This document shows, one piece after another, positions 679 to 9,940 of a stretch of 10,992 nt of DNA. The stretch is from a virus (Duplodnaviria; Heunggongvirae; Uroviricota; Caudoviricetes): IMG/VR virus record IMGVR_UViG_2600255112_000003; one strand, 5' to 3'. Made by a program: the position numbers and the translations under genes. The notes under the pieces were generated by a model. The model ran no database searches and had not been told where the DNA came from. It worked only from the letters and a program-made list of their open reading frames with translations. Within the stretch, counting starts at the first letter, position 1. Each line of letters opens with the position of its first letter.

Positions 679-1173
679 TCAGAACAGCCCTTTAACTGAA
701 CTGGCCGCGCTGTTAAGAGATGATGTCACCTTATCTTTGAAGCCGGACAGCATATCACTGAACGATGAGGATTGCAGGCGCTCCCGCAAATCCTCATCAC
801 AGCGTTCAAGGGTCAGTGAAAATTCTATCTTTTTCGCCTTACCGTAGCGATCAAACTCGGAACGGGTCGTATTCGTTTCAGTCAGGACATACATGCCGTA
901 AATCTGCCCGACGCCATCAATCAAAGGCCAGGGTCGTCCTGTATACGCCTGCGTGGTCAGCAGCGACAGCGACACTTCGCCACCTGTAATTTCAGGATAA
1001 AGCACACCAGAAAGAACGATGCGATCATCACCTGCACCGATATACTGCCAGCTTGCTGAACGGTTAACGCGTTCATTTTTCACATGCCGCCAGCTTTTGT
1101 TTTGCTGTAACTGCTGATGCGGCAGCGTGCGCAGCTCAAAAACAAACATGCCGTAGATCATCATCATGGCCAT
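679..1173 (-). CDS. U: P2-like tail protein gpU
   Basis: 164-aa ORF starting MAMMMIYGMFVFELRT, an N-terminus resembling my recollection of P2 gpU. It lies directly downstream of the tape measure gene (T stop TGA 1180-1182, GGAG, then ATG at 1173), as in P2. Confidence 0.85.
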   Translation of the reverse strand: MAMMMIYGMFVFELRTLPHQQLQQNKSWRHVKNERVNRSASWQYIGAGDDRIVLSGVLYPEITGGEVSLSLLTTQAYTGRPWPLIDGVGQIYGMYVLTETNTTRSEFDRYGKAKKIEFSLTLERCDEDLRERLQSSSFSDMLSGFKDKVTSSLNSAASSVKGLF

Positions 1174-1179
1174 GACTCC

Positions 1180-4023
1180 TCAATCTTTATCGTAAAAACT
1201 GCCACGCCCGGCACGGGCGCGCCGTTCCATTTCTGCCCTGACCATTTCACCGACCAGTTTCGCCAGTTCGCGGGGATTCTGCGTAACAACGTTATGCAGA
1301 TGAACATGAATTTCACCACCAAATCCGGAGGCAACAGGCTCCCGGTTACGGGAAGTTACAGGAACTGATGCCACTGGAGATCGTATAGCCTCCGCCACCG
1401 GGCGGGAGCTGGCCGCAACAACAGGGACCAGCGCCGGAGGCAGCGGAGCCGGGACCACGGGTGTGATATTAATTGCGGGGGCAGGCTTACTGACCTGCGC
1501 AATCTTCCGCTCCTGCCACTCCCCACGAACAGCAAGTGCTCGGGGCAGGTTTTTAAAGACAATATCGCCGGGGCCAATGCGTTTTTTCGTCTCCTCAACC
1601 AGCTTACCTGTGTTATCAGCAATTTTGCTGAGTCTGCGCAGCGTACCGGTATTGCTGTCTGTGAGCGGTTTATTGTCTTTGGGGTTATCACCTCCGGTGC
1701 CATTGCCATTTTCCACAGGCTTCGGCGGATTGATTTTCGCCAGGTCCCCCTGAAGCAAGGCAACCTTGTCCTGAAGAATGGCCGCACGCTGTGCGTCTTC
1801 GATTTTCTTGCGCGCCCTTTCCGCTTCATCCGGAAGCACACCAAGCTTTTCAAGTATCCACGCCAGCGTATCCAGCAACATTTTTGCAGGTGTCAGAACA
1901 AGTTGTAACGCACCGCCAAGAACGTTACCGAATATCTCGCCAGCACTGGTACATTTATCCAGCGTTTCCTTGCTGGACTCCATCGGTGACAGCAGCGATT
2001 TAAACCAGTTAAACACCTGGCTGATCCCACTCCCGATTGCGTCAAAAACAGGACCAAACCGTTCAAAGGTTTCGCGCAACGGGGTCAGCCTTTCCATAAT
2101 CCCGCTGAACACCCCGGCAAAAAATGCCCTGATGGGATCCCAGTATTTCCAGATAAGAACGGCAGCTCCGGCAAGCGCAGCCACGATAAGACCAACCGGA
2201 CTGAACAACGCCCCGATAGCGCCTCCCAGTAAAGAAACGGAACCCGTCACCATTCCCCATAGTGCTGGCAGAACCCTGACAGCATTCATTGATCCGGTCA
2301 GGAGGGAAAAACCAAGACGCAGTTTTGCCAGCGGGCCAGCAAGCACACCAATAGCCAGCGACAACGAGCCAACCGTTGCAGTCATTGCCAGCAGTGCACC
2401 GCCTGCAATCAGTAGCTGGCGCGTCAGTGCGGGATGGGCCTGCGCCAGCGCCGTCACCTTTGATACCACACGCGTGAGCCACTGCGTGACAGAACGCAGC
2501 GGACCGTCAATCAGATCTGCAATGCGGATGCGCAACCCTTCCCATGCACTGCTGAGTGATTTCAGATCGCCGTCAAGGTTGTTGGCCATAACCTTTGCCG
2601 TGCGTTCAGCCTCACCGCGCGCGCCTTCAAGTTCTTTTCTCAGTTTGGGTAAGGAGCCGTCACCTGCCGCATCAACGAGGGCCATAAATGATGTGAAAGC
2701 CTCTTCTCCGGCAATGTCCTTAAAGAACGATACCCGGTCAACTTCCCCGTATTTGCGGGTAGCTTTATAAAGGTCAGCCAGCACATCCTCCATCGGGCGC
2801 ATTTTGCCCCCGGCATCCGAGACAGACACGCCAAGCTCTTTCAGCGCCTCTGCTGCCGCCTTTGGCGGTGATGCCAGACGAGCCAGGCTGGCACGCATTG
2901 CCGTACCAGCATCACTCCCCCTGATACCCATATTCGCCAGCACGCCCGCCATCGCTGCGGCCTGCTCCAGCGATATTCCCAGCTTACCCGCCACCGGACC
3001 TGCATATTTCATGGTTTCACCCAGTGCGCGAAGGTCAGTGTTGGTACGGGTAAACGCTGCGGTGAGTGTGTCGCCGACCCGGCCCATCTGGTCAGCAGAA
3101 AGACCGAACTGCGTCAGAATATTTGAGCCAATATCCGCCGTCTCACCGAGGTCCATACCGCCAGCCGTTGCCATGCTCAGTACGCCAGGGAGCGCAGCCT
3201 GAATGGCCTGTGGTGTAAAGCCAGCCATTGCAAGAAATGCCTGTCCACTGGCGGCATCGCCTGCGGTGAACTGCGTTTCAGAGCCAAGTTTTAACGCCTG
3301 CTCACGCAGCGCCTTAAACTGCGGGCTGTTCTGGTCGATTCGCGTCAGTGCCTGAACGCGGGACATCTCTTTGCCGAACCCGATCGCAGGCTGCAAAAAA
3401 CGCCCGGCAGCATAGCCGCCCGCCGCTGCCGCACCAATTGCCAGCGCACCACCTGTTTTCAGTTTTCCCGCTGTTTCCTGCGCGCGCGAATACCGCTCAC
3501 GCGCCCGTGTTACACGCGCAAGCACCTGCCGTTCGCGTTCAAGCTGGTTGTTGTACTGTTCGGTGCGTCTGATGGCCTGCTGGATGGTGTTATCGCTGCC
3601 TGTCAGGGAAATGCCGTGGCGTTTCAGCTCTCCGCCAAGCTCCCGCATTTTCTGAATTTCCCGTGTGCGCGATTCATTCAGGCGTTCAAGCCGGGTGCTT
3701 AACTGCTGCATCAGCTTTTGTTGTTTTTCGCTGAGCACTGTACCCGTGCGTTGTAACTGATTAAGGGCGTTAAGCTGGCGTCGTGCTTTCACGATGCCCG
3801 CATCCGCTTTACTGACAGCGTCACGGGCGCGCTCAAATGATCGCGCCTGACGCTCGAGATTTTTGATCGCCCCCTGCGTTCGCTGGATGGAGTCACCAAA
3901 CTGCCCCATCAGGCGGCGGGCGTTTTCGGCAGGCCGGGTCAGCCTGTCAACGGCGCTGAAAGCGACCCGGATATCAAGAGTCTTCATTGTCTGCATTCCC
4001 GCTACGAAGTGCCGCCCGCTCAC
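1180..4023 (-). CDS. T: Tail tape measure protein (gpT-like)
   Basis: 947-aa ORF, Ala/Gly/Leu-rich, with a charged helical N-terminal third and central hydrophobic segments, positioned between E/E' and U as expected for a tape measure. The track start is GTG 4023; in-frame ATGs at 3996 and 3987 are alternative starts, and the start overlaps the end of the E' frame. Confidence 0.85.
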   Translation of the reverse strand: MSGRHFVAGMQTMKTLDIRVAFSAVDRLTRPAENARRLMGQFGDSIQRTQGAIKNLERQARSFERARDAVSKADAGIVKARRQLNALNQLQRTGTVLSEKQQKLMQQLSTRLERLNESRTREIQKMRELGGELKRHGISLTGSDNTIQQAIRRTEQYNNQLERERQVLARVTRARERYSRAQETAGKLKTGGALAIGAAAAGGYAAGRFLQPAIGFGKEMSRVQALTRIDQNSPQFKALREQALKLGSETQFTAGDAASGQAFLAMAGFTPQAIQAALPGVLSMATAGGMDLGETADIGSNILTQFGLSADQMGRVGDTLTAAFTRTNTDLRALGETMKYAGPVAGKLGISLEQAAAMAGVLANMGIRGSDAGTAMRASLARLASPPKAAAEALKELGVSVSDAGGKMRPMEDVLADLYKATRKYGEVDRVSFFKDIAGEEAFTSFMALVDAAGDGSLPKLRKELEGARGEAERTAKVMANNLDGDLKSLSSAWEGLRIRIADLIDGPLRSVTQWLTRVVSKVTALAQAHPALTRQLLIAGGALLAMTATVGSLSLAIGVLAGPLAKLRLGFSLLTGSMNAVRVLPALWGMVTGSVSLLGGAIGALFSPVGLIVAALAGAAVLIWKYWDPIRAFFAGVFSGIMERLTPLRETFERFGPVFDAIGSGISQVFNWFKSLLSPMESSKETLDKCTSAGEIFGNVLGGALQLVLTPAKMLLDTLAWILEKLGVLPDEAERARKKIEDAQRAAILQDKVALLQGDLAKINPPKPVENGNGTGGDNPKDNKPLTDSNTGTLRRLSKIADNTGKLVEETKKRIGPGDIVFKNLPRALAVRGEWQERKIAQVSKPAPAINITPVVPAPLPPALVPVVAASSRPVAEAIRSPVASVPVTSRNREPVASGFGGEIHVHLHNVVTQNPRELAKLVGEMVRAEMERRARAGRGSFYDKD

Positions 4024-4243
4024 GCCAGCTAACCACTTCGCCGGGCGTCATCATGAAGATTTCGGCGGGCGACCAGTTAAAAATGGCGGCAATATCCGCC
4101 ACCAGATCTTCGATGTGCTCAAAGCACACCAGGGTGATTACGCTGCCGTCTCCTGCACGCTCTTCGCGCCAGAGTCTGGCTCGCTCATAAAATTTACAGC
4201 CACAGCGCACAACTGAATAAAATCGCGTGACGACATTTTTTTA
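3974..4243 (-). CDS. E' extension of the tail assembly chaperone, expressed only as an E+E' fusion by -1 frameshift
   Basis: The -1 frame relative to E opens immediately after a TAA at 4243-4241 and stays open to a stop at 3976-3974, overlapping the T start. An A7 run on the coding strand (T7 at 4236-4242 on +) sits exactly at the opening of this frame. This matches the conserved chaperone frameshift arrangement of long-tailed phages (P2 E/E', lambda G/GT). Confidence 0.45.
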
Positions 4244-4512
4244 ATCATCACTTCATCCAGTCGTGGCGAGGTCACGCGAGGCAACAGCGTGAACATGGTA
4301 TCCGCTTTCAGATTCAGCACATCAGACAGCGACAGACCACGCAGGGATCCAGCCTGCTCAATAGCCCCGGTGATCTCCACATACGTGATTTTTTCGCCAC
4401 CACGCTCAATTGGTCGGGTCAGTTTTACGCCACGTTCGACAGCCATATCCTCAACTGCCGTCACATTATCCGCCACGGTGTTATTCCGGGTTTCAGTATC
4501 GATGTCTTTCAT
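4138..4512 (-). CDS. E: Tail assembly chaperone gpE
   Basis: 124-aa ORF with an ATG at 4512-4510 preceded by AAGGAG at 8-nt spacing. It contains LTRPIERGGEKITYVEI...LRGLSLSDVLNL...LLPRVTSP, resembling the P2 gpE family, and lies between FII and T. Confidence 0.8.
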   Translation of the reverse strand: MKDIDTETRNNTVADNVTAVEDMAVERGVKLTRPIERGGEKITYVEITGAIEQAGSLRGLSLSDVLNLKADTMFTLLPRVTSPRLDEVMIKKMSSRDFIQLCAVAVNFMSEPDSGAKSVQETAA

Positions 4513-4567
4513 CTGTTGTCTCCTTTTCAGTCAGAGGCGACGCACTGCGCCGCCGGCATATTACTTA

Positions 4568-5080
4568 TCAGCCAAGCCCAAGCGCGGAACGGATGCGATC
4601 GGGCACAATGTCCTTGCCGTCCTTCCGGTAAATGAAGTTCAGCAGGTCAATCTCCCACAACGGGCGATCGTTAACACTCAGCTTGTAGTAGGTGTTTTTA
4701 ATGGCGTAAGTGTGTGATGTGGCTTCGCCCTGTTTGGCTTCCCCCATATCAATTTCCGTCACACGTCCGCGCATTTCGACTTCATACAGGTCGCTTTCTG
4801 CATCGGTGTAGTATTCACCCGCAAAACGCAGCAGCGTGCCGTCAATCGTGCCGCCATACTTAAGGAACAGCTCACGAACTGCGCCCCCCATGACAAAGCT
4901 CGCATCAAGCGCGGAGTCGTCCAGACCGAGATCAATACTTACCGCACCCATCATGCCACCACCCCGGTAGCTGTCGGTTTTGCGCGTCAGCTTAGGCAGA
5001 GTGACGGACGTCACCTTACCCACTTCGTTTTCACCATCCACAAACAGCGTAAAAAAGCGAAGATGTTTTGGCACAGCCAT
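4568..5080 (-). CDS. FII: Tail tube protein FII
   Basis: 170-aa ORF, close to my recollection of P2 FII size, immediately downstream of the sheath gene. Its ATG shares one nucleotide with the FI stop (TGATG), indicating translational coupling. Confidence 0.9.
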   Translation of the reverse strand: MAVPKHLRFFTLFVDGENEVGKVTSVTLPKLTRKTDSYRGGGMMGAVSIDLGLDDSALDASFVMGGAVRELFLKYGGTIDGTLLRFAGEYYTDAESDLYEVEMRGRVTEIDMGEAKQGEATSHTYAIKNTYYKLSVNDRPLWEIDLLNFIYRKDGKDIVPDRIRSALGLG

Positions 5081-6264
5081 CAGGCACCTCCCAGCACCGC
5101 AAATGCGGGTTCAAAGTATTCATCAGTAAACGTCTGGTAAAGCTCCATGTCTTCCAGTGGCGGAACGGGCGTATATTTGTAGCGAATACGCACACGTCCC
5201 TGACGTAAATCCGTGGTGCTGTTATCCACCACGTCATACCAGCACTCCGCGCCAATCAGTTTCCCGGCAGTCACCAGTGAATCCAGTTTTGCCCTGATGG
5301 CACTGATAACATCCTTCACATTCGCAGGCGTCAGTGGACTGTCGATGGTTTCAAACTGCGCTTCCGCAATTGAATCAGCCAGCACCTGTGCGGTTCGGGT
5401 ATACACCTCAAAGATGTAGGCGTTCGTTTCCGGTGTGCGGTTACCCCAGAAGCGGAACCCGTTACGACGAATAATGGTCGTGATTTCTTTGTTGTTGAGG
5501 CTGTTGGCATCGCTGTCTTCGGCCTGCAACGACCAGAACACATGCCTCGACATCCCCAGCACATTTTTAACCGGAACGTTGGACAGTGATTTGTGCCATC
5601 CCTGTTCATGGTCAATGTACGCACGAAGGCCGCACGCATAGGCAGGCGCGGGGAACGTTTCGTTTTTGCCACTTTTCGGGTTGTAGGCGATGAAGTCCGG
5701 CCATAAGAGCATCACCTCACGTTCGTTGAATTTCTGGCGGTAGGTAATCGCCTCAGCCATCGTGTTACAGCCGTGACATGAGGCATACACAAACGCGCGC
5801 AGTTTACCTGCAATCACGCACAGGGATTTCGTTACCGCCTCCGTGTCCAGCTCCGGCGCGGCCAGAATACGCGGACGGTATCCGATGCTTTCATCCTGCT
5901 CTGCAACAAGCAGCGCATACATCCCCGTATAGCTGCCGTCATCCTCAGAACCACCGATAACCAGTTGATCCTGCGTCTTTCCGTCTTCTTCTTTGTGTTC
6001 AGCCACGCGAACGACGATCACCTTTGTGCTCACCTGGTCTGCGATGGCCTTAAGCGCACGATAAAGCGTCCCCGTTGTTCCGCATTTTCCCAGCACGTCA
6101 TTGACGCGGGTCAGCAGTGTGGGCTTGTTCAGCGGGAACAGCTTCGCGTCCGCATCATCCGCCGTTGCCACGATACCGATAACGCTGGAATCAACATCGT
6201 TAATCGCTGTTACCAGGTCGGTATTTTCCGTAACACGGGCACCATGAAAACGAGTTTCACTCAT
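5080..6264 (-). CDS. FI: Contractile tail sheath protein FI
   Basis: 394-aa ORF starting MSETRFHGARVTE, with size and position (first gene of the sheath-tube-chaperone-tape measure operon) as in P2 FI. ATG at 6264-6262. Confidence 0.9.
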   Translation of the reverse strand: MSETRFHGARVTENTDLVTAINDVDSSVIGIVATADDADAKLFPLNKPTLLTRVNDVLGKCGTTGTLYRALKAIADQVSTKVIVVRVAEHKEEDGKTQDQLVIGGSEDDGSYTGMYALLVAEQDESIGYRPRILAAPELDTEAVTKSLCVIAGKLRAFVYASCHGCNTMAEAITYRQKFNEREVMLLWPDFIAYNPKSGKNETFPAPAYACGLRAYIDHEQGWHKSLSNVPVKNVLGMSRHVFWSLQAEDSDANSLNNKEITTIIRRNGFRFWGNRTPETNAYIFEVYTRTAQVLADSIAEAQFETIDSPLTPANVKDVISAIRAKLDSLVTAGKLIGAECWYDVVDNSTTDLRQGRVRIRYKYTPVPPLEDMELYQTFTDEYFEPAFAVLGGA

Positions 6265-7894: not shown

Positions 7895-8107
7895 ATGGTC
7901 GGAGGGAATACCCGAAGGCCGGATGTGGAAAGGCCCCGGAAAACATATCTGTTTAACCGAGGCCCTAACCGCATTACCTTGACAAGTGAAAGGTTAGCGC
8001 CTCTCCGGAAAAGGAGCAAGTGCTATGTCGCAAAAATCGCTTACGGCCATCACGTTCTGCGTGACGGCAATCCTCATCATCTGGATGCTGCACGGTTCGC
8101 TGTGTGA
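7895..8107 (+). CDS. mok-like overlapping reading frame upstream of and overlapping hok
   Basis: 70-codon ORF in a different frame that starts upstream of hok and ends inside it, the geometry of mok in hok/sok loci. I see no clear Shine-Dalgarno and cannot confirm by similarity. Confidence 0.3.
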   Translation: MVGGNTRRPDVERPRKTYLFNRGPNRITLTSERLAPLRKRSKCYVAKIAYGHHVLRDGNPHHLDAARFAV

Positions 8108-8165
8108 AATACGGATGAGTTTCTGGGGAGCGGAGTTTGCGGCGTTCTTACAGTGTAAGCAGTAA
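8025..8165 (+). CDS. hok: Hok/Gef-family type I toxin (small membrane peptide)
   Basis: Not in the ORF track (46 aa). ATG 8025 is preceded by AAGGAG (8011-8016). Translation MSQKSLTAITFCVTAILIIWMLHGSLCEIRMSFWGAEFAAFLQCKQ has an N-terminal transmembrane helix followed by the SLCE(I/L)R ... E-x-AAFL-x-CK signature, closest to my recollection of HokA. Confidence 0.75.
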   Translation: MSQKSLTAITFCVTAILIIWMLHGSLCEIRMSFWGAEFAAFLQCKQ

Positions 8166-8174
8166 GGAAACCGC

Positions 8175-8196
8175 GACGGGGGAGCAATCCCCCGTC
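8175..8196 (+). other. Stable stem-loop just 3' of hok, possibly part of the hok mRNA 3' structure
   Basis: Perfect 9-bp stem gacggggga / tcccccgtc with a gcaa loop, 10 nt after the hok stop. There is no U-tract, so it is not a classical intrinsic terminator. Confidence 0.4.
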
Positions 8197-8226
8197 AATC
8201 GGTTGCCAGGGTAAGGTCGATAAGGC

Positions 8227-8321
8227 ACCCTATCTCACCAATGCCGTTCAGTTAGTTAAGGAATTGAGGTTCGAGCTATCGAACCTCAATTCCTTAACTG
8301 AACTACATTACCCTATCTCAC
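8227..8321. mobile_element. 71-bp palindromic miniature element with IS4-like termini, flanked by a 12-bp target-site duplication
   Basis: Exact 12-bp direct repeats ACCCTATCTCAC at 8227-8238 and 8310-8321 flank 8239-8309. The enclosed segment is almost entirely an inverted repeat: a 16-bp perfect stem, a gcta centre, and 9 more pairs after a 4-nt gtta bulge. Both tips begin AATG, and AATGCCGTTCAGTTA..AGGA resembles my recollection of the IS4 terminal repeat. A 12-bp duplication fits the 11-13 bp made by IS4-family transposases. Confidence 0.55.
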
Positions 8322-8445
8322 AGCTCTAAATGCAAAAATCCCATGAAACTGTGGGTATTTCATCACACACTGACACTGCTCTACCTTTCTATATGTATCA
8401 CTCTAAACCAGTTAATCAATTGGCACTTATCAACAACAAAAAATC

Positions 8446-8454
8446 TGATAAAAT
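8446..8454 (+). promoter_or_regulatory. Candidate extended -10 promoter for the AT-rich two-gene cassette
   Basis: TGaTAAAAT about 55 nt upstream of ATG 8509 in an AT-rich leader, with no good -35 at proper spacing. Confidence 0.3.
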
Positions 8455-8508
8455 CAAAATGTTTTGTAACAAATTTCAGCTTGTAGTGTTCCAAAGGAGA
8501 CGAATTAC

Positions 8509-8841
8509 ATGACATTAATCAAATGTCCTGAATGCCAGAAAGAGGTAAGCGATTCAGCATTATGTTGCCCTGCTTGTGGTAAACAACTGAAAAAACTTAA
8601 GCGTTCATTTTTTGGAAAACTCATTAAATGGACTTTTATATTTTTTAATATTTTTATGATCTATACACTTTTAGTTGGACTAGGAGGCGCTGATGAAATA
8701 ATAAACAATACCACATCCGATGCCGAAAAAGCTGGGGCAGTTATTGGTACGGGCTTAGGTTTAATTGTCATTGGAGGCTTATGGGTTATTGGCGATATCA
8801 TTATCGGAATTTTAGTATTTCTTACTAAACCAAAGGGATAA
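8509..8841 (+). CDS. Small membrane protein with N-terminal zinc ribbon and two predicted transmembrane helices
   Basis: AAGGAG Shine-Dalgarno 9 nt upstream. CPECQ-x12-CCPACG forms a four-cysteine zinc ribbon, followed by hydrophobic segments WTFIFFNIFMIYTLLVGLGG and AVIGTGLGLIVIGGLWVIGDIIIGILVFL. The coding sequence is visibly AT-rich. Confidence 0.7.
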   Translation: MTLIKCPECQKEVSDSALCCPACGKQLKKLKRSFFGKLIKWTFIFFNIFMIYTLLVGLGGADEIINNTTSDAEKAGAVIGTGLGLIVIGGLWVIGDIIIGILVFLTKPKG

Positions 8842-8845
8842 TAAA

Positions 8846-9739
8846 ATGAAAAATATGATTTTTTCTATAGGTGCATTATTTATATCAATTAGTGTACTGC
8901 CTGTTCATGCAGCAACTGAACATAAGAATTTCAATGCAGTGCTCCAGTGCCGAGCGATAGAAAACAATAAAGACAGACTTTCTTGTTACGATAAGTCAAT
9001 ACAACCGACTCGAACGAAAGTTGCTGAAAAATTTGAAAGCAGGGATCAATGCCCTGATGAGAAAGATGATGACAAACGTTTATCTTGTTATGATCGTTTT
9101 TTTTCTCCAACATTTACTCCATCTGTAAACTCAAAATCTAAAACGGAAAAGCTAGTAACAACAAAGGCTCAGCAACCAAATCTTTCTGAAATATCTAAAT
9201 GCCGAGCAGAAAATGATAAAGAAGCCAGACTAAACTGCTACGATAAACTATTCCCACAGGATGAAGCTGTTCAATCTGAATCACAATTAGAGAAAGCCAC
9301 AGATGCAGGAAAATGGCACACGTCCATTACTACATCGCCAATTGATGATTCGAAAAATATAATTTTATCGTTAGAAAGTGATGATTATATCAGAACTCCA
9401 TTTGGAGAAGCTGTTACTCCCACTCTGTTTATAGCTTGCCGAGAAAAGAAAACCGAAGTATTTCTTAGTTGGGATGTATATTTAGGCCTTGAACAAACCA
9501 GCATGCTGTATCGTCTTGATAAACAGAAAGCAGTTGAAAGAAACTGGCTAATATCTACAGATACAAAGGCTGTTTTTTATAAAGGTAATGATATTGATTT
9601 CATAAGAAAACTTGCCAACTCACATAAAATGTACACAAAAATAACCCCTTATAATGAAAGCCCTGTAAGTGCAACTTTCAATTTAAGCGGCCTGTCAAAT
9701 GCACTAAAACCGCTTCAAGATGCTTGTAACTGGAAATAG
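8846..9739 (+). CDS. Secreted (Sec signal peptide) cysteine-repeat protein of unknown function
   Basis: Starts 4 nt after the upstream stop with an AGGG ribosome-binding site, so it is likely co-transcribed. N-terminus MKNMIFSIGALFISISVLPVHA/AT is a typical signal peptide with an AxA cleavage site. Three repeats of C-x11-C-Y-D-[KR] are followed by a C-terminal domain of about 150 aa with two more cysteines. Confidence 0.75.
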   Translation: MKNMIFSIGALFISISVLPVHAATEHKNFNAVLQCRAIENNKDRLSCYDKSIQPTRTKVAEKFESRDQCPDEKDDDKRLSCYDRFFSPTFTPSVNSKSKTEKLVTTKAQQPNLSEISKCRAENDKEARLNCYDKLFPQDEAVQSESQLEKATDAGKWHTSITTSPIDDSKNIILSLESDDYIRTPFGEAVTPTLFIACREKKTEVFLSWDVYLGLEQTSMLYRLDKQKAVERNWLISTDTKAVFYKGNDIDFIRKLANSHKMYTKITPYNESPVSATFNLSGLSNALKPLQDACNWK

Positions 9740-9757
9740 TATATACCTCCCCAATAT

Positions 9758-9799
9758 CAGATGACAAAACGCCCGTGAAAACGGGCGTTTTGTCATCTG
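9758..9799. terminator. Strong bidirectional intrinsic terminator
   Basis: Perfect 18-bp inverted repeat cagatgacaaaacgcccg / cgggcgttttgtcatctg with a 6-nt loop. The GC core is flanked by A/T runs on both strands, 19 nt after the cassette stop. Confidence 0.8.
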
Positions 9800-9940
9800 T
9801 AACTCGAAAATGTGGTCATTGCGTGGACATACGATGATATAAATCCTTTTATATCAAAAGATTAAACCACTATTATTTTCCTCAACAAGGATTTTCACGT
9901 TTGTGTTACCTGTATGAGACGAGAGTTAACCAGACAAGTG

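Follow-up and report, generated by a model that had tools for sequence, protein, structure and literature searches.

What is the AT-rich pair of genes that lies between a P2-like phage backbone and the host gene flk, to which replicon does it belong and what might it do for its carrier? These questions are raised by the window, namely the whole 10,992-nt stretch of DNA analyzed here (virus record IMGVR_UViG_2600255112_000003), in which two plus-strand open reading frames (ORFs), gene 1 (8509-8841, 110 aa) and gene 2 (8846-9739, 297 aa), form a compact cassette. Our analysis identified the cassette as a moron as Hendrix uses the term, an accessory and autonomous transcription unit, which occupies a variable slot between ogr/hok and attP/attR and encodes two translationally coupled envelope proteins: a zinc-ribbon membrane protein and an exported protein of the VasI family. 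The cassette most likely alters the cell envelope of the lysogen. We favor, at a probability of roughly 0.45, a lysogenic-conversion module in which the VasI-like protein would act as an effector against superinfecting phages, and possibly against type VI secretion systems (T6SS) or tailocins, with its membrane partner anchoring, regulating or relaying.

The window represents an E. coli chromosome with the right-hand end of a P2-like prophage (Peduoviridae), which is inserted at pdxB/flk. The minus strand bears the tail genes U, T, E, FII and FI and the plus strand D, ogr and hok/gef, after which comes flk. A first-pass annotation of the sequence had placed the cassette between the prophage end and flk; junction mapping puts it inside the prophage instead. 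Homology on the flk side extends to every one of the 5426 complete E. coli genomes, but in those free of the prophage it begins only at position 9874. On the other side, homology to the ogr-hok backbone, found in ~1550 E. coli genomes, ends at 8238. Moreover, the phage record P88_4B11 (Peduoviridae, Xuanwuvirus) carries the cassette at 99.3% identity with the integrase directly after it; its alignment to the window runs on at 100% identity as far as 9895, beyond which it diverges into the phage integrase. The alignment start of the prophage-free genomes and the end of the P88_4B11 match therefore define the att core as 9874-9895 (TATTTTCCTCAACAAGGATTTT), which is the attR core at the right boundary of the prophage. 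An AT-rich cargo segment (8310-9873, plus strand), delimited by its GC content and by homology breaks on both sides, fills the space between the ogr-hok backbone and attR, and starts where alleles of 92% identity begin to align. Altogether, the onset of host homology, the carriage by P88_4B11, the backbone break and the variable content of the slot identify the cassette as prophage cargo, the last inside the prophage just before attR, with no separate island between the prophage and flk.

These data bear directly on the proposal that the segment is a separately acquired island at the flk locus outside the prophage, or decaying junk DNA. Its atypical composition and a frameshift in one allele clade would fit such an origin, but the att core lies downstream of the cassette, and the junction mapping refutes the proposal. 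In addition, the cassette sits beside the integrase in the phage record and has moved with ogr-hok onto plasmids, the putative promoter is conserved, and both genes are under purifying selection across genera. An island or junk origin is thus scarcely credible.

The interval between hok and the att site differs among prophages. Among the complete E. coli genomes, 240 of 5426 (4.4%) carry the cassette, the copies of which fall into three identity bands, and a relic of it accompanies ogr-hok on 11 plasmids (PLSDB). In some related prophages (at ihfA and serS), the slot after hok is empty, and in one prophage clade a RES-toxin element lies ahead of the present cassette. These differing or absent contents indicate that the hok-att interval is a variable cargo slot. 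Beyond E. coli, P2-like prophages of Pectobacterium, Klebsiella/Raoultella, Enterobacter and Dickeya have the gene 1-gene 2 pair directly after ogr and ahead of the host junction; five enterobacterial genera including E. coli share this position, in prophages at several different host sites. Both the presence/absence polymorphism and the travel with P2-like prophages, which the first-pass annotation had raised as possibilities, were found. Two further occupants of the slot were also seen: genes for a TM2-domain protein, Com and a DNA methyltransferase, in this order, in a prophage at the raiA site (locus L021, 5228-6665), and a gene for a 98-aa zinc-ribbon and TM2 protein ahead of an inverted 250-aa VasI-like gene in prophages at the ytfP site (loci L008-L010, 7001-8126).

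Analysis of base composition revealed a GC content of 0.354 for the segment 8310-9873, compared to 0.536 in the remaining window, and a third-position GC content (GC3) of 0.25 in both cassette genes, compared to 0.52-0.70 in the tail genes, ogr, hok and flk. The earlier description of two genes 4 nt apart that are more AT-rich than the tail genes and flk was therefore accurate. The two genes lie on the same strand and are separated by TAAA between the stop codon of gene 1 and the ATG of gene 2, each with a Shine-Dalgarno sequence (AAGGAG at 8494-8499 for gene 1, AAGGGA at 8833-8838 for gene 2). The unit had also been thought to start at 8330, which is the start of a 60-aa ORF (8330-8512) that we reject as a gene together with a 47-aa ORF (8343-8486), as the underlying DNA is conserved only in close E. 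coli alleles; no PADLOC model matched the 60-aa ORF. The conserved unit begins instead at ~8394-8427.

A putative sigma-70 promoter on the plus strand (8427-8454) was located by a promoter scan and a cross-genus alignment, consisting of the -35 element TTATCA (8427-8432), a 16-nt spacer and the extended -10 element TGaTAAAAT (8446-8454). For this alignment, we compared the spacer ahead of gene 1 in E. coli, Klebsiella, Enterobacter, Pectobacterium and Dickeya and at one metagenomic (fusion) locus. The -35 element (TTGTCA/TTATCA), the 16-nt spacer and the extended -10 element are kept amid the divergent spacers of E. coli, Klebsiella, Pectobacterium, Dickeya and the fusion locus, and the pair is not seen in the Enterobacter spacer. 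In the genera other than E. coli, the putative promoter sits right after the ogr terminator hairpin. The first-pass claim of a dedicated promoter is thus backed by conservation, whereas in the generic scan alone the site is no better than chance. At the other end, inverted-repeat analysis revealed a terminator hairpin (9758-9799), in which the arms 9758-9776 and 9781-9799 are 100% complementary and enclose a 4-nt loop, with a G+C-rich inner stem between A/T runs and TTTTG after it. The perfect stem noticed earlier is real, but measures 19 bp rather than 18 bp, and the terminator is potentially bidirectional. The promoter-like site, which is conserved though putative, and the terminator therefore provide the unit with its own start and stop signals. 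Together with the atypical GC content and the absence from most ogr-hok-bearing prophages, they characterize the cassette as the AT-rich mobile moron at a prophage end that had been suspected.

Gene 2 (8846-9739, plus strand) encodes an exported protein of 297 residues, for which Pfam, PHROG, AlphaFold2 and Foldseek analyses delineate a signal peptide, three cysteine hairpins and a C-terminal β-sandwich. The signal peptide is probably cleaved at VHA/AT, and the mature protein is predicted to be a Sec-exported periplasmic protein. The three C-x11-C helical hairpins, each with an RLxCYD motif (Cys 35/47, 69/81 and 119/131), are connected by disordered linkers and precede a VasI/IalB-type β-sandwich (residues ~155-297) that contains Cys 198/294. 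According to the model, the eight cysteines likely form four disulfide pairs, three of which would staple the hairpins. The AlphaFold2 model has a mean predicted local distance difference test (pLDDT) score of 72, with values of 84-95 across residues 155-297. Among homologues, hairpin number and length vary together, with one hairpin in proteins of ~200-220 aa, two in those of 247-250 aa and three in those of 294-298 aa.

The first-pass annotation recognized no named family for either protein, which turned out to be wrong for gene 2. Its product scores 90.8 bits against Pfam PF11319 VasI (cut-off 26.5, E=1.1e-25), with three stretches matched by the profile, the best of which aligns residues 118-296 to profile positions 1-184 of 184. 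It also matches phrog_1848 (E=3.5e-37), and its name in RefSeq is "type VI secretion system-associated protein TagO". Taken at face value, this membership and this name would make gene 2 a genuine T6SS accessory, i.e. a phage-supplied TagO/VasI that joins, tunes or hijacks the type VI apparatus of the host. P2-type tails and T6SS are homologous contractile machines, and the C-x-RLxCYD hairpin and the C-terminal C-x-W align between gene 2 and the T6SS-2 TagO of E. coli Sakai (ECs_0222), both of which have a signal peptide. However, the NCBIfam equivalog TIGR03360 gives gene 2 only 78.9 bits against a cut-off of 124.2 and four phage-type relatives 31-68 bits, compared to 257.4 bits for ECs_0222, and BLASTP aligns gene 2 to ECs_0222 with 25% identity over 195 aa (E=4e-11). 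Across the genomic contexts examined (the window and nine homologue look-ups, seven of them at P2-like prophage ends), no gene 2 homologue lies beside tss genes, which argues that the protein is not part of a T6SS. Likewise, the Sakai T6SS cluster examined contains no equivalent of the zinc-ribbon partner, and a 2026 review gives the function of TagO/VasI itself as unknown (PMC13584744). A T6SS accessory role is therefore improbable, and gene 2 is, as judged from its sequence, a distant paralogue of the T6SS accessory TagO/VasI.

Structural similarity search using Foldseek revealed that the β-sandwich resembles the chains of IalB (PDB 3dtd), with E-values of 3e-6 to 3e-5, a probability of 1.00 and target-normalized TM-scores of 0.59-0.63. 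The Pfam IalB model (PF06776) matches gene 2 at 19.4 bits (E=0.0012), under its cut-off of 22.1, and a PDB sequence search with the gene 2 family profile returned chance matches only, with TIM21 at E>0.1. Foldseek also matched the sandwich to uncharacterized proteins of the unrelated phages RB16, KP15 and Vibrio phage VH7D. The match to IalB, in fold and weakly in Pfam, could point by analogy with Bartonella IalB to a virulence or host-interaction factor of the lysogen. Many carriers are indeed clinical E. coli or Klebsiella, and the plasmid relics come from human stool and diarrhoeal E. coli isolates. Nevertheless, the cassette is found equally in plant pathogens (Pectobacterium and Dickeya) and water isolates, gene 2 is split in all annotated plasmid copies (10 of 11) and likewise in the plasmid locus examined, and Sec export to the periplasm is the only secretion signal. 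The mechanism of IalB is itself unknown, and a virulence function is very improbable.

Related VasI-like proteins of Vibrio and Photobacterium are encoded alone or amid unrelated small genes. One Vibrio vulnificus contig (L023, 1-6866) has a single-hairpin VasI-like gene among many ~30-aa ORFs and a Phd/ParE pair. Its layout recalls the cassette array of a Vibrio superintegron, and integron cassettes may thus be a further form in which the fold circulates.

Gene 1 (8509-8841, plus strand) encodes an inner-membrane protein of 110 residues that consists of an N-terminal C4 zinc ribbon (CPEC...CPAC, residues 6-23) and two transmembrane (TM) helices (~34-67 and ~71-105), as indicated by profiles, the AlphaFold2 model and hydropathy. 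The model shows a ribbon and a helical hairpin with a mean pLDDT of 77.6, and hydropathy agrees with the two membrane helices. In the predicted topology, the ribbon and both ends are cytoplasmic, and a loop of ~18 residues is exposed to the periplasm. Together with the signal peptide and the eight cysteines of gene 2, this predicted architecture is in line with the earlier view of a membrane-anchored cytoplasmic zinc ribbon paired with a disulfide-rich exported partner. phrog_6586 covers gene 1 over its full length (E=5e-38). Pfam zinc-ribbon models match at E=5e-5 to 3e-4, under their cut-offs; apart from these, gene 1 has no Pfam family match.

Sequence alignment of the gene 1 family, with a mean column identity of 71%, revealed an ordered set of motifs: CPEC-x10-CPxC, a basic juxtamembrane KRSFFGKxIKWxF, TM1 with an invariant Asn, the ~18-residue loop, TM2 carrying WVIGD, and a C-terminal LT(R/K)PK. 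The residues N47, W92, G95, T106 and P108 are invariant, and D96 is near-invariant. The possibility that gene 1 is a TM2-domain protein (PF05154) was rejected, as it has no TM2 match and hhalign against the zinc-ribbon TM2 protein of the alternative cassette, which itself scores 68 bits on the TM2 model, aligns the zinc ribbon alone. The helical hairpin belongs to a very large uncharacterized family, with 7871 cluster representatives at E<=1e-3 and the motifs RSxxGKxxKxxFIxFN … WxxGDIIxG…LTR. Many of its members are free-standing proteins of ~95-100 aa without a ribbon, and others have one or two N-terminal ribbons or long C-terminal extensions; they match the DrpB model only weakly.

The resemblance of gene 1 to the divisome protein DrpB underlies the main rival to our favored explanation. 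Here gene 1 would be the active component, a DrpB-like hairpin that acts on the divisome or triggers the Rcs or Psp envelope stress responses, with gene 2 as a periplasmic sensor or regulator and any resistance to phages or T6SS arising indirectly, e.g. through induction of the capsule. The NCBIfam DrpB model NF038392 matches 26 of 30 gene 1 family members at E<=0.05, nearly end to end and with a best E of 7e-7, and hhalign of the family against E. coli DrpB (probability 20%, E=1e-3) aligns the motifs flanking both helices, RSxxGKLxxWxF ahead of TM1 and TRP[KR] past TM2. Overproduced DrpB activates Rcs through the periplasmic domain of RcsC, for which T89 of DrpB is required (PMC11709261), and this residue aligns with the invariant T106 of gene 1. 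The topology of DrpB, with both termini inside and a ~20-aa loop (PMC7648144), agrees with the model of gene 1. On the gene 2 side, the IalB-domain periplasmic protein RgsG belongs to the Rgs proteins of polar growth and division in Sinorhizobium, a set that interacts with Tol-Pal (PMC7327166). However, all DrpB scores lie far under the curated cut-off (18-24 bits against 50; gene 1 itself 18.5 bits), and the membrane module is very large and has no demonstrated link to DrpB function. Moreover, in a control with 2000 shuffles of either kind, full shuffling attained the hhalign score once, whereas shuffling with the hydrophobic layout kept intact did so 88 times. The DrpB link is therefore an unproven lead, and the likeness could arise from topology and composition alone. 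We consider signaling or divisome action unlikely, and the T6SS, virulence and junk readings less likely still.

Several features suggest that the two genes are functionally coupled. The 4-nt gap in the window becomes a 4-nt overlap of the gene coordinates in Enterobacter, and the pair shares its position in five genera. Where the partner is replaced, in the E. coli prophages at ytfP, it is again a zinc ribbon on a protein with two TM helices, of the TM2 family. Furthermore, both genes are under purifying selection: among E. coli alleles, gene 2 has a ratio of nonsynonymous to synonymous substitution rates (dN/dS) of 0.13-0.15 and gene 1 one of 0.24-0.45, and that of gene 1 against other genera is <0.07 with saturated dS. 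One metagenomic P2-like prophage (locus L016, 7001-7732) encodes a 243-aa protein, P0053, in which the ribbon of gene 1 is followed by a hydrophobic segment and a VasI-like body. We rejected P0053 as a Rosetta-stone fusion, as it is found on a single contig and looks like an in-frame deletion that joins ~29 residues of gene 1 onto the gene 2 signal peptide; an origin by deletion is more probable than an evolved fusion.

The sole functional datum for the VasI fold outside T6SS comes from SDIC4 of Serratia defense islands, the relation of which to gene 2 would be at the level of the fold only. SDIC4B, VasI-like by its authors' HHpred analysis and located outside T6SS clusters, confers on its own 10-200-fold protection against several phages (bioRxiv 10.1101/2024.01.28.577318). 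We extracted the sequences of SDIC4A and SDIC4B from the supplementary plasmid sequences of that preprint; both proteins (150 and 157 aa, respectively) have a signal peptide, so SDIC4 acts in the envelope as well. Similar to the cassette, SDIC4 is a two-gene operon in mobile or variable non-T6SS DNA that encodes a signal-peptide protein with a VasI-like fold (in SDIC4B, according to the authors' HHpred). The cysteine spacing of SDIC4B also resembles that of the gene 2 domain, with one cysteine early and one near the C-terminus, ~96-99 residues apart. No BrxR gene is present near the cassette homologues at any locus examined. A direct relationship of the cassette to SDIC4A or SDIC4B was considered and rejected, as hhalign and Pfam show none.

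Altogether, the conflict-type cargo of the slot, the autonomy of the unit, the envelope location of its products, the occurrence of the fold in other phages and the SDIC4 precedent make envelope protection the likeliest role. We propose that the unit would be transcribed in the lysogen from its own putative promoter, and that the periplasmic VasI-like product of gene 2, sitting between the outer and inner membranes, would function as the effector. It would hinder envelope-piercing machines, chiefly superinfecting phages at the step of tail penetration or DNA entry, and possibly also counter T6SS or tailocin attack. The gene 1 product would anchor, position or regulate the effector; alternatively, its zinc ribbon may relay a periplasmic event to the cytoplasm. 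The net result would be an envelope conversion that shields the lysogen and hence the prophage. In a bolder version, the VasI/TagO paralogue and its DrpB-like partner would make up a hitherto unrecognized immunity module of the envelope, directed at contractile injection machines, namely the tails of myophages, tailocins and T6SS. The gene 2 protein would then recognize or obstruct the spike or tube crossing the periplasm, and the gene 1 protein would block inner-membrane entry or signal to the cytoplasm, e.g. via Rcs; this version we hold to be unlikely.

A number of observations weigh against envelope protection. The precedent is remote: SDIC4B has no Pfam match and no detectable sequence similarity to the gene 2 family (hhalign probability 0.1%), and it lacks the RLxCYD hairpins. 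Its partner SDIC4A is a signal-peptide protein and not a zinc-ribbon membrane protein, and SDIC4 resides in BrxR-associated chromosomal islands, whereas the cassette lies at prophage ends. The first-pass annotation had suggested superinfection exclusion, an inhibitor of lysozyme or toxins, or a sensor-effector pair as candidate functions. None of the models in PADLOC-DB 2.0.0 matches either cassette protein at E<=1, and surveys of P2 defense hotspots omit the ogr-att slot and mention neither ogr, hok, VasI nor TagO (PMC9122126, PMC13586616). Gene 2 is also broken in part of the distribution. In one locus of the 80-90% identity band (L004, 6450-7360), it is frameshifted after the second hairpin (…DRFF|LQHLLRL*); the zinc-ribbon gene of the 80-90% band locus examined shows more non-conservative changes, with a dN/dS of 0.45. 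In the RefSeq annotation, gene 2 appears as two ORFs in every listed member of this band (46 genomes); of the 11 plasmid copies, 10 show such a split and one is unannotated, and the one plasmid relic examined is frameshifted. The split and frameshifted copies therefore imply that loss of gene 2 is tolerated. Finally, conservation of the pair is unusually strong and its position is the same from genus to genus, a pattern that resembles a stable accessory function of the phage more than a defense cargo under rapid exchange.

The surroundings of the cassette present additional features. Between the ogr-hok backbone and the cargo segment, a 71-bp palindromic insert (8239-8309; arms 8254-8274 and 8279-8299) lies between 12-bp direct repeats ACCCTATCTCAC (8227-8321). 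At this spot, all 66 E. coli genomes with the cassette allele of at least 99% identity have a ~1.4-kb element with ~105-bp terminal inverted repeats that encodes a RES-family NAD+ phosphorylase, of which the window keeps only the joined outer inverted-repeat ends; the alleles of 92% identity have a single copy of the 12-mer and lack the insert. The region 8227-8321 resembles the trace left behind by a mobile element that is non-autonomous and duplicates 12 bp of its target. At the host junction, the att core falls within codons 2-8 of pdxB (minus strand), the GTG start codon of which is at 9896-9898. The prophage therefore parts the body of pdxB, on the attL side, from its own start codon and promoter; attL lies beyond the window. 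The attP-side sequence of P88_4B11 would give pdxB an in-frame TTG and 8 additional codons, and the 5' end of this gene may thus be substituted by the phage.

In the backbone, the tail block FI-FII-E-T-U (679-6264) runs on the strand opposite to D-ogr, and a gene for a Hin-type serine recombinase/invertase (38-643) adjoins gpU; at the latter position, the closest complete genome (L001) has a "transferase" gene. The Hok/Gef type I toxin gene (8025-8165; Pfam 29.9 bits, cut-off 22) belongs to the conserved phage backbone. It is overlapped by a mok-like ORF (7895-8107), and a G+C-rich hairpin is found at 8174-8197. An Rfam scan of the whole window at gathering thresholds matched nothing, sok-type antisense RNAs included, and hence no known RNA element and no sok model match was found.

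Both gene families are already present in Pfam, PHROGs and RefSeq names, and the proteins themselves are not new. What is new, as far as the searchable literature shows, is that a VasI branch serves as phage cargo rather than T6SS equipment, along with its fixed position, its obligate pairing with a zinc-ribbon two-helix protein, its variable hairpin number and a possible DrpB-like partner; a prophage pair of TagO and a zinc-ribbon protein was not found in that literature. The finding establishes a distinct, conserved TagO/VasI branch as standard fixed-site cargo of P2-like prophages in at least five enterobacterial genera, separates the VasI fold from T6SS and corrects a misleading automatic annotation. 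A readily cloned two-gene system of ~1.4 kb also offers a compact route to the periplasmic role of the VasI fold. Should the cassette turn out to serve exclusion or protection, the ogr-att slot would be counted among the known P2 hotspots, and an envelope-acting mechanism would be added to a defense catalogue dominated by cytoplasmic nucleic-acid sensors. If a phenotype is absent, the pair would be an ordinary conserved phage moron. Were the module directed against contractile machines, a role of TagO/VasI in T6SS would be suggested, namely in passing the organism's own spike through the periplasm or peptidoglycan.

Gene 2 shares with the T6SS proteins TagO/VasI (ECs_0222 and V. cholerae VCA0118) a signal peptide, the RLxCYD cysteine hairpin and a β-sandwich ending in C-x-W, and all are presumably periplasmic. 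They differ in that the hairpin is triplicated in gene 2 (1-3 copies in the family), at low identity and a sub-equivalog score, and that ECs_0222 adjoins clpV/tssH, whereas gene 2 is located at the ogr-attR end of a P2-like prophage. The same C-terminal fold is found in IalB and RgsG, which are periplasmic or inner-membrane associated as well; compared to gene 2, they are encoded by alphaproteobacterial chromosomal genes and lack the cysteine-hairpin repeats. The membrane part of gene 1 resembles DrpB (YedR), a divisome protein and multicopy Rcs activator, in size, topology and helix-flanking motifs, but gene 1 has an added N-terminal zinc ribbon, is phage-borne and scores below the cut-off of the DrpB model.

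The cassette may also be compared to the classical exclusion and conversion morons of prophages. P2-family prophages classically carry the exclusion genes old, tin and fun, and the P2-like Vibrio phage K139 encodes the periplasmic exclusion protein Glo. Several of the classical exclusion morons block other phages at the membrane or in the periplasm. Although a sequence or fold relationship to them is absent, the cassette resembles these systems (P2 old/tin/fun, K139 glo and T4 imm/sp) in consisting of accessory phage or prophage genes with their own expression signals.

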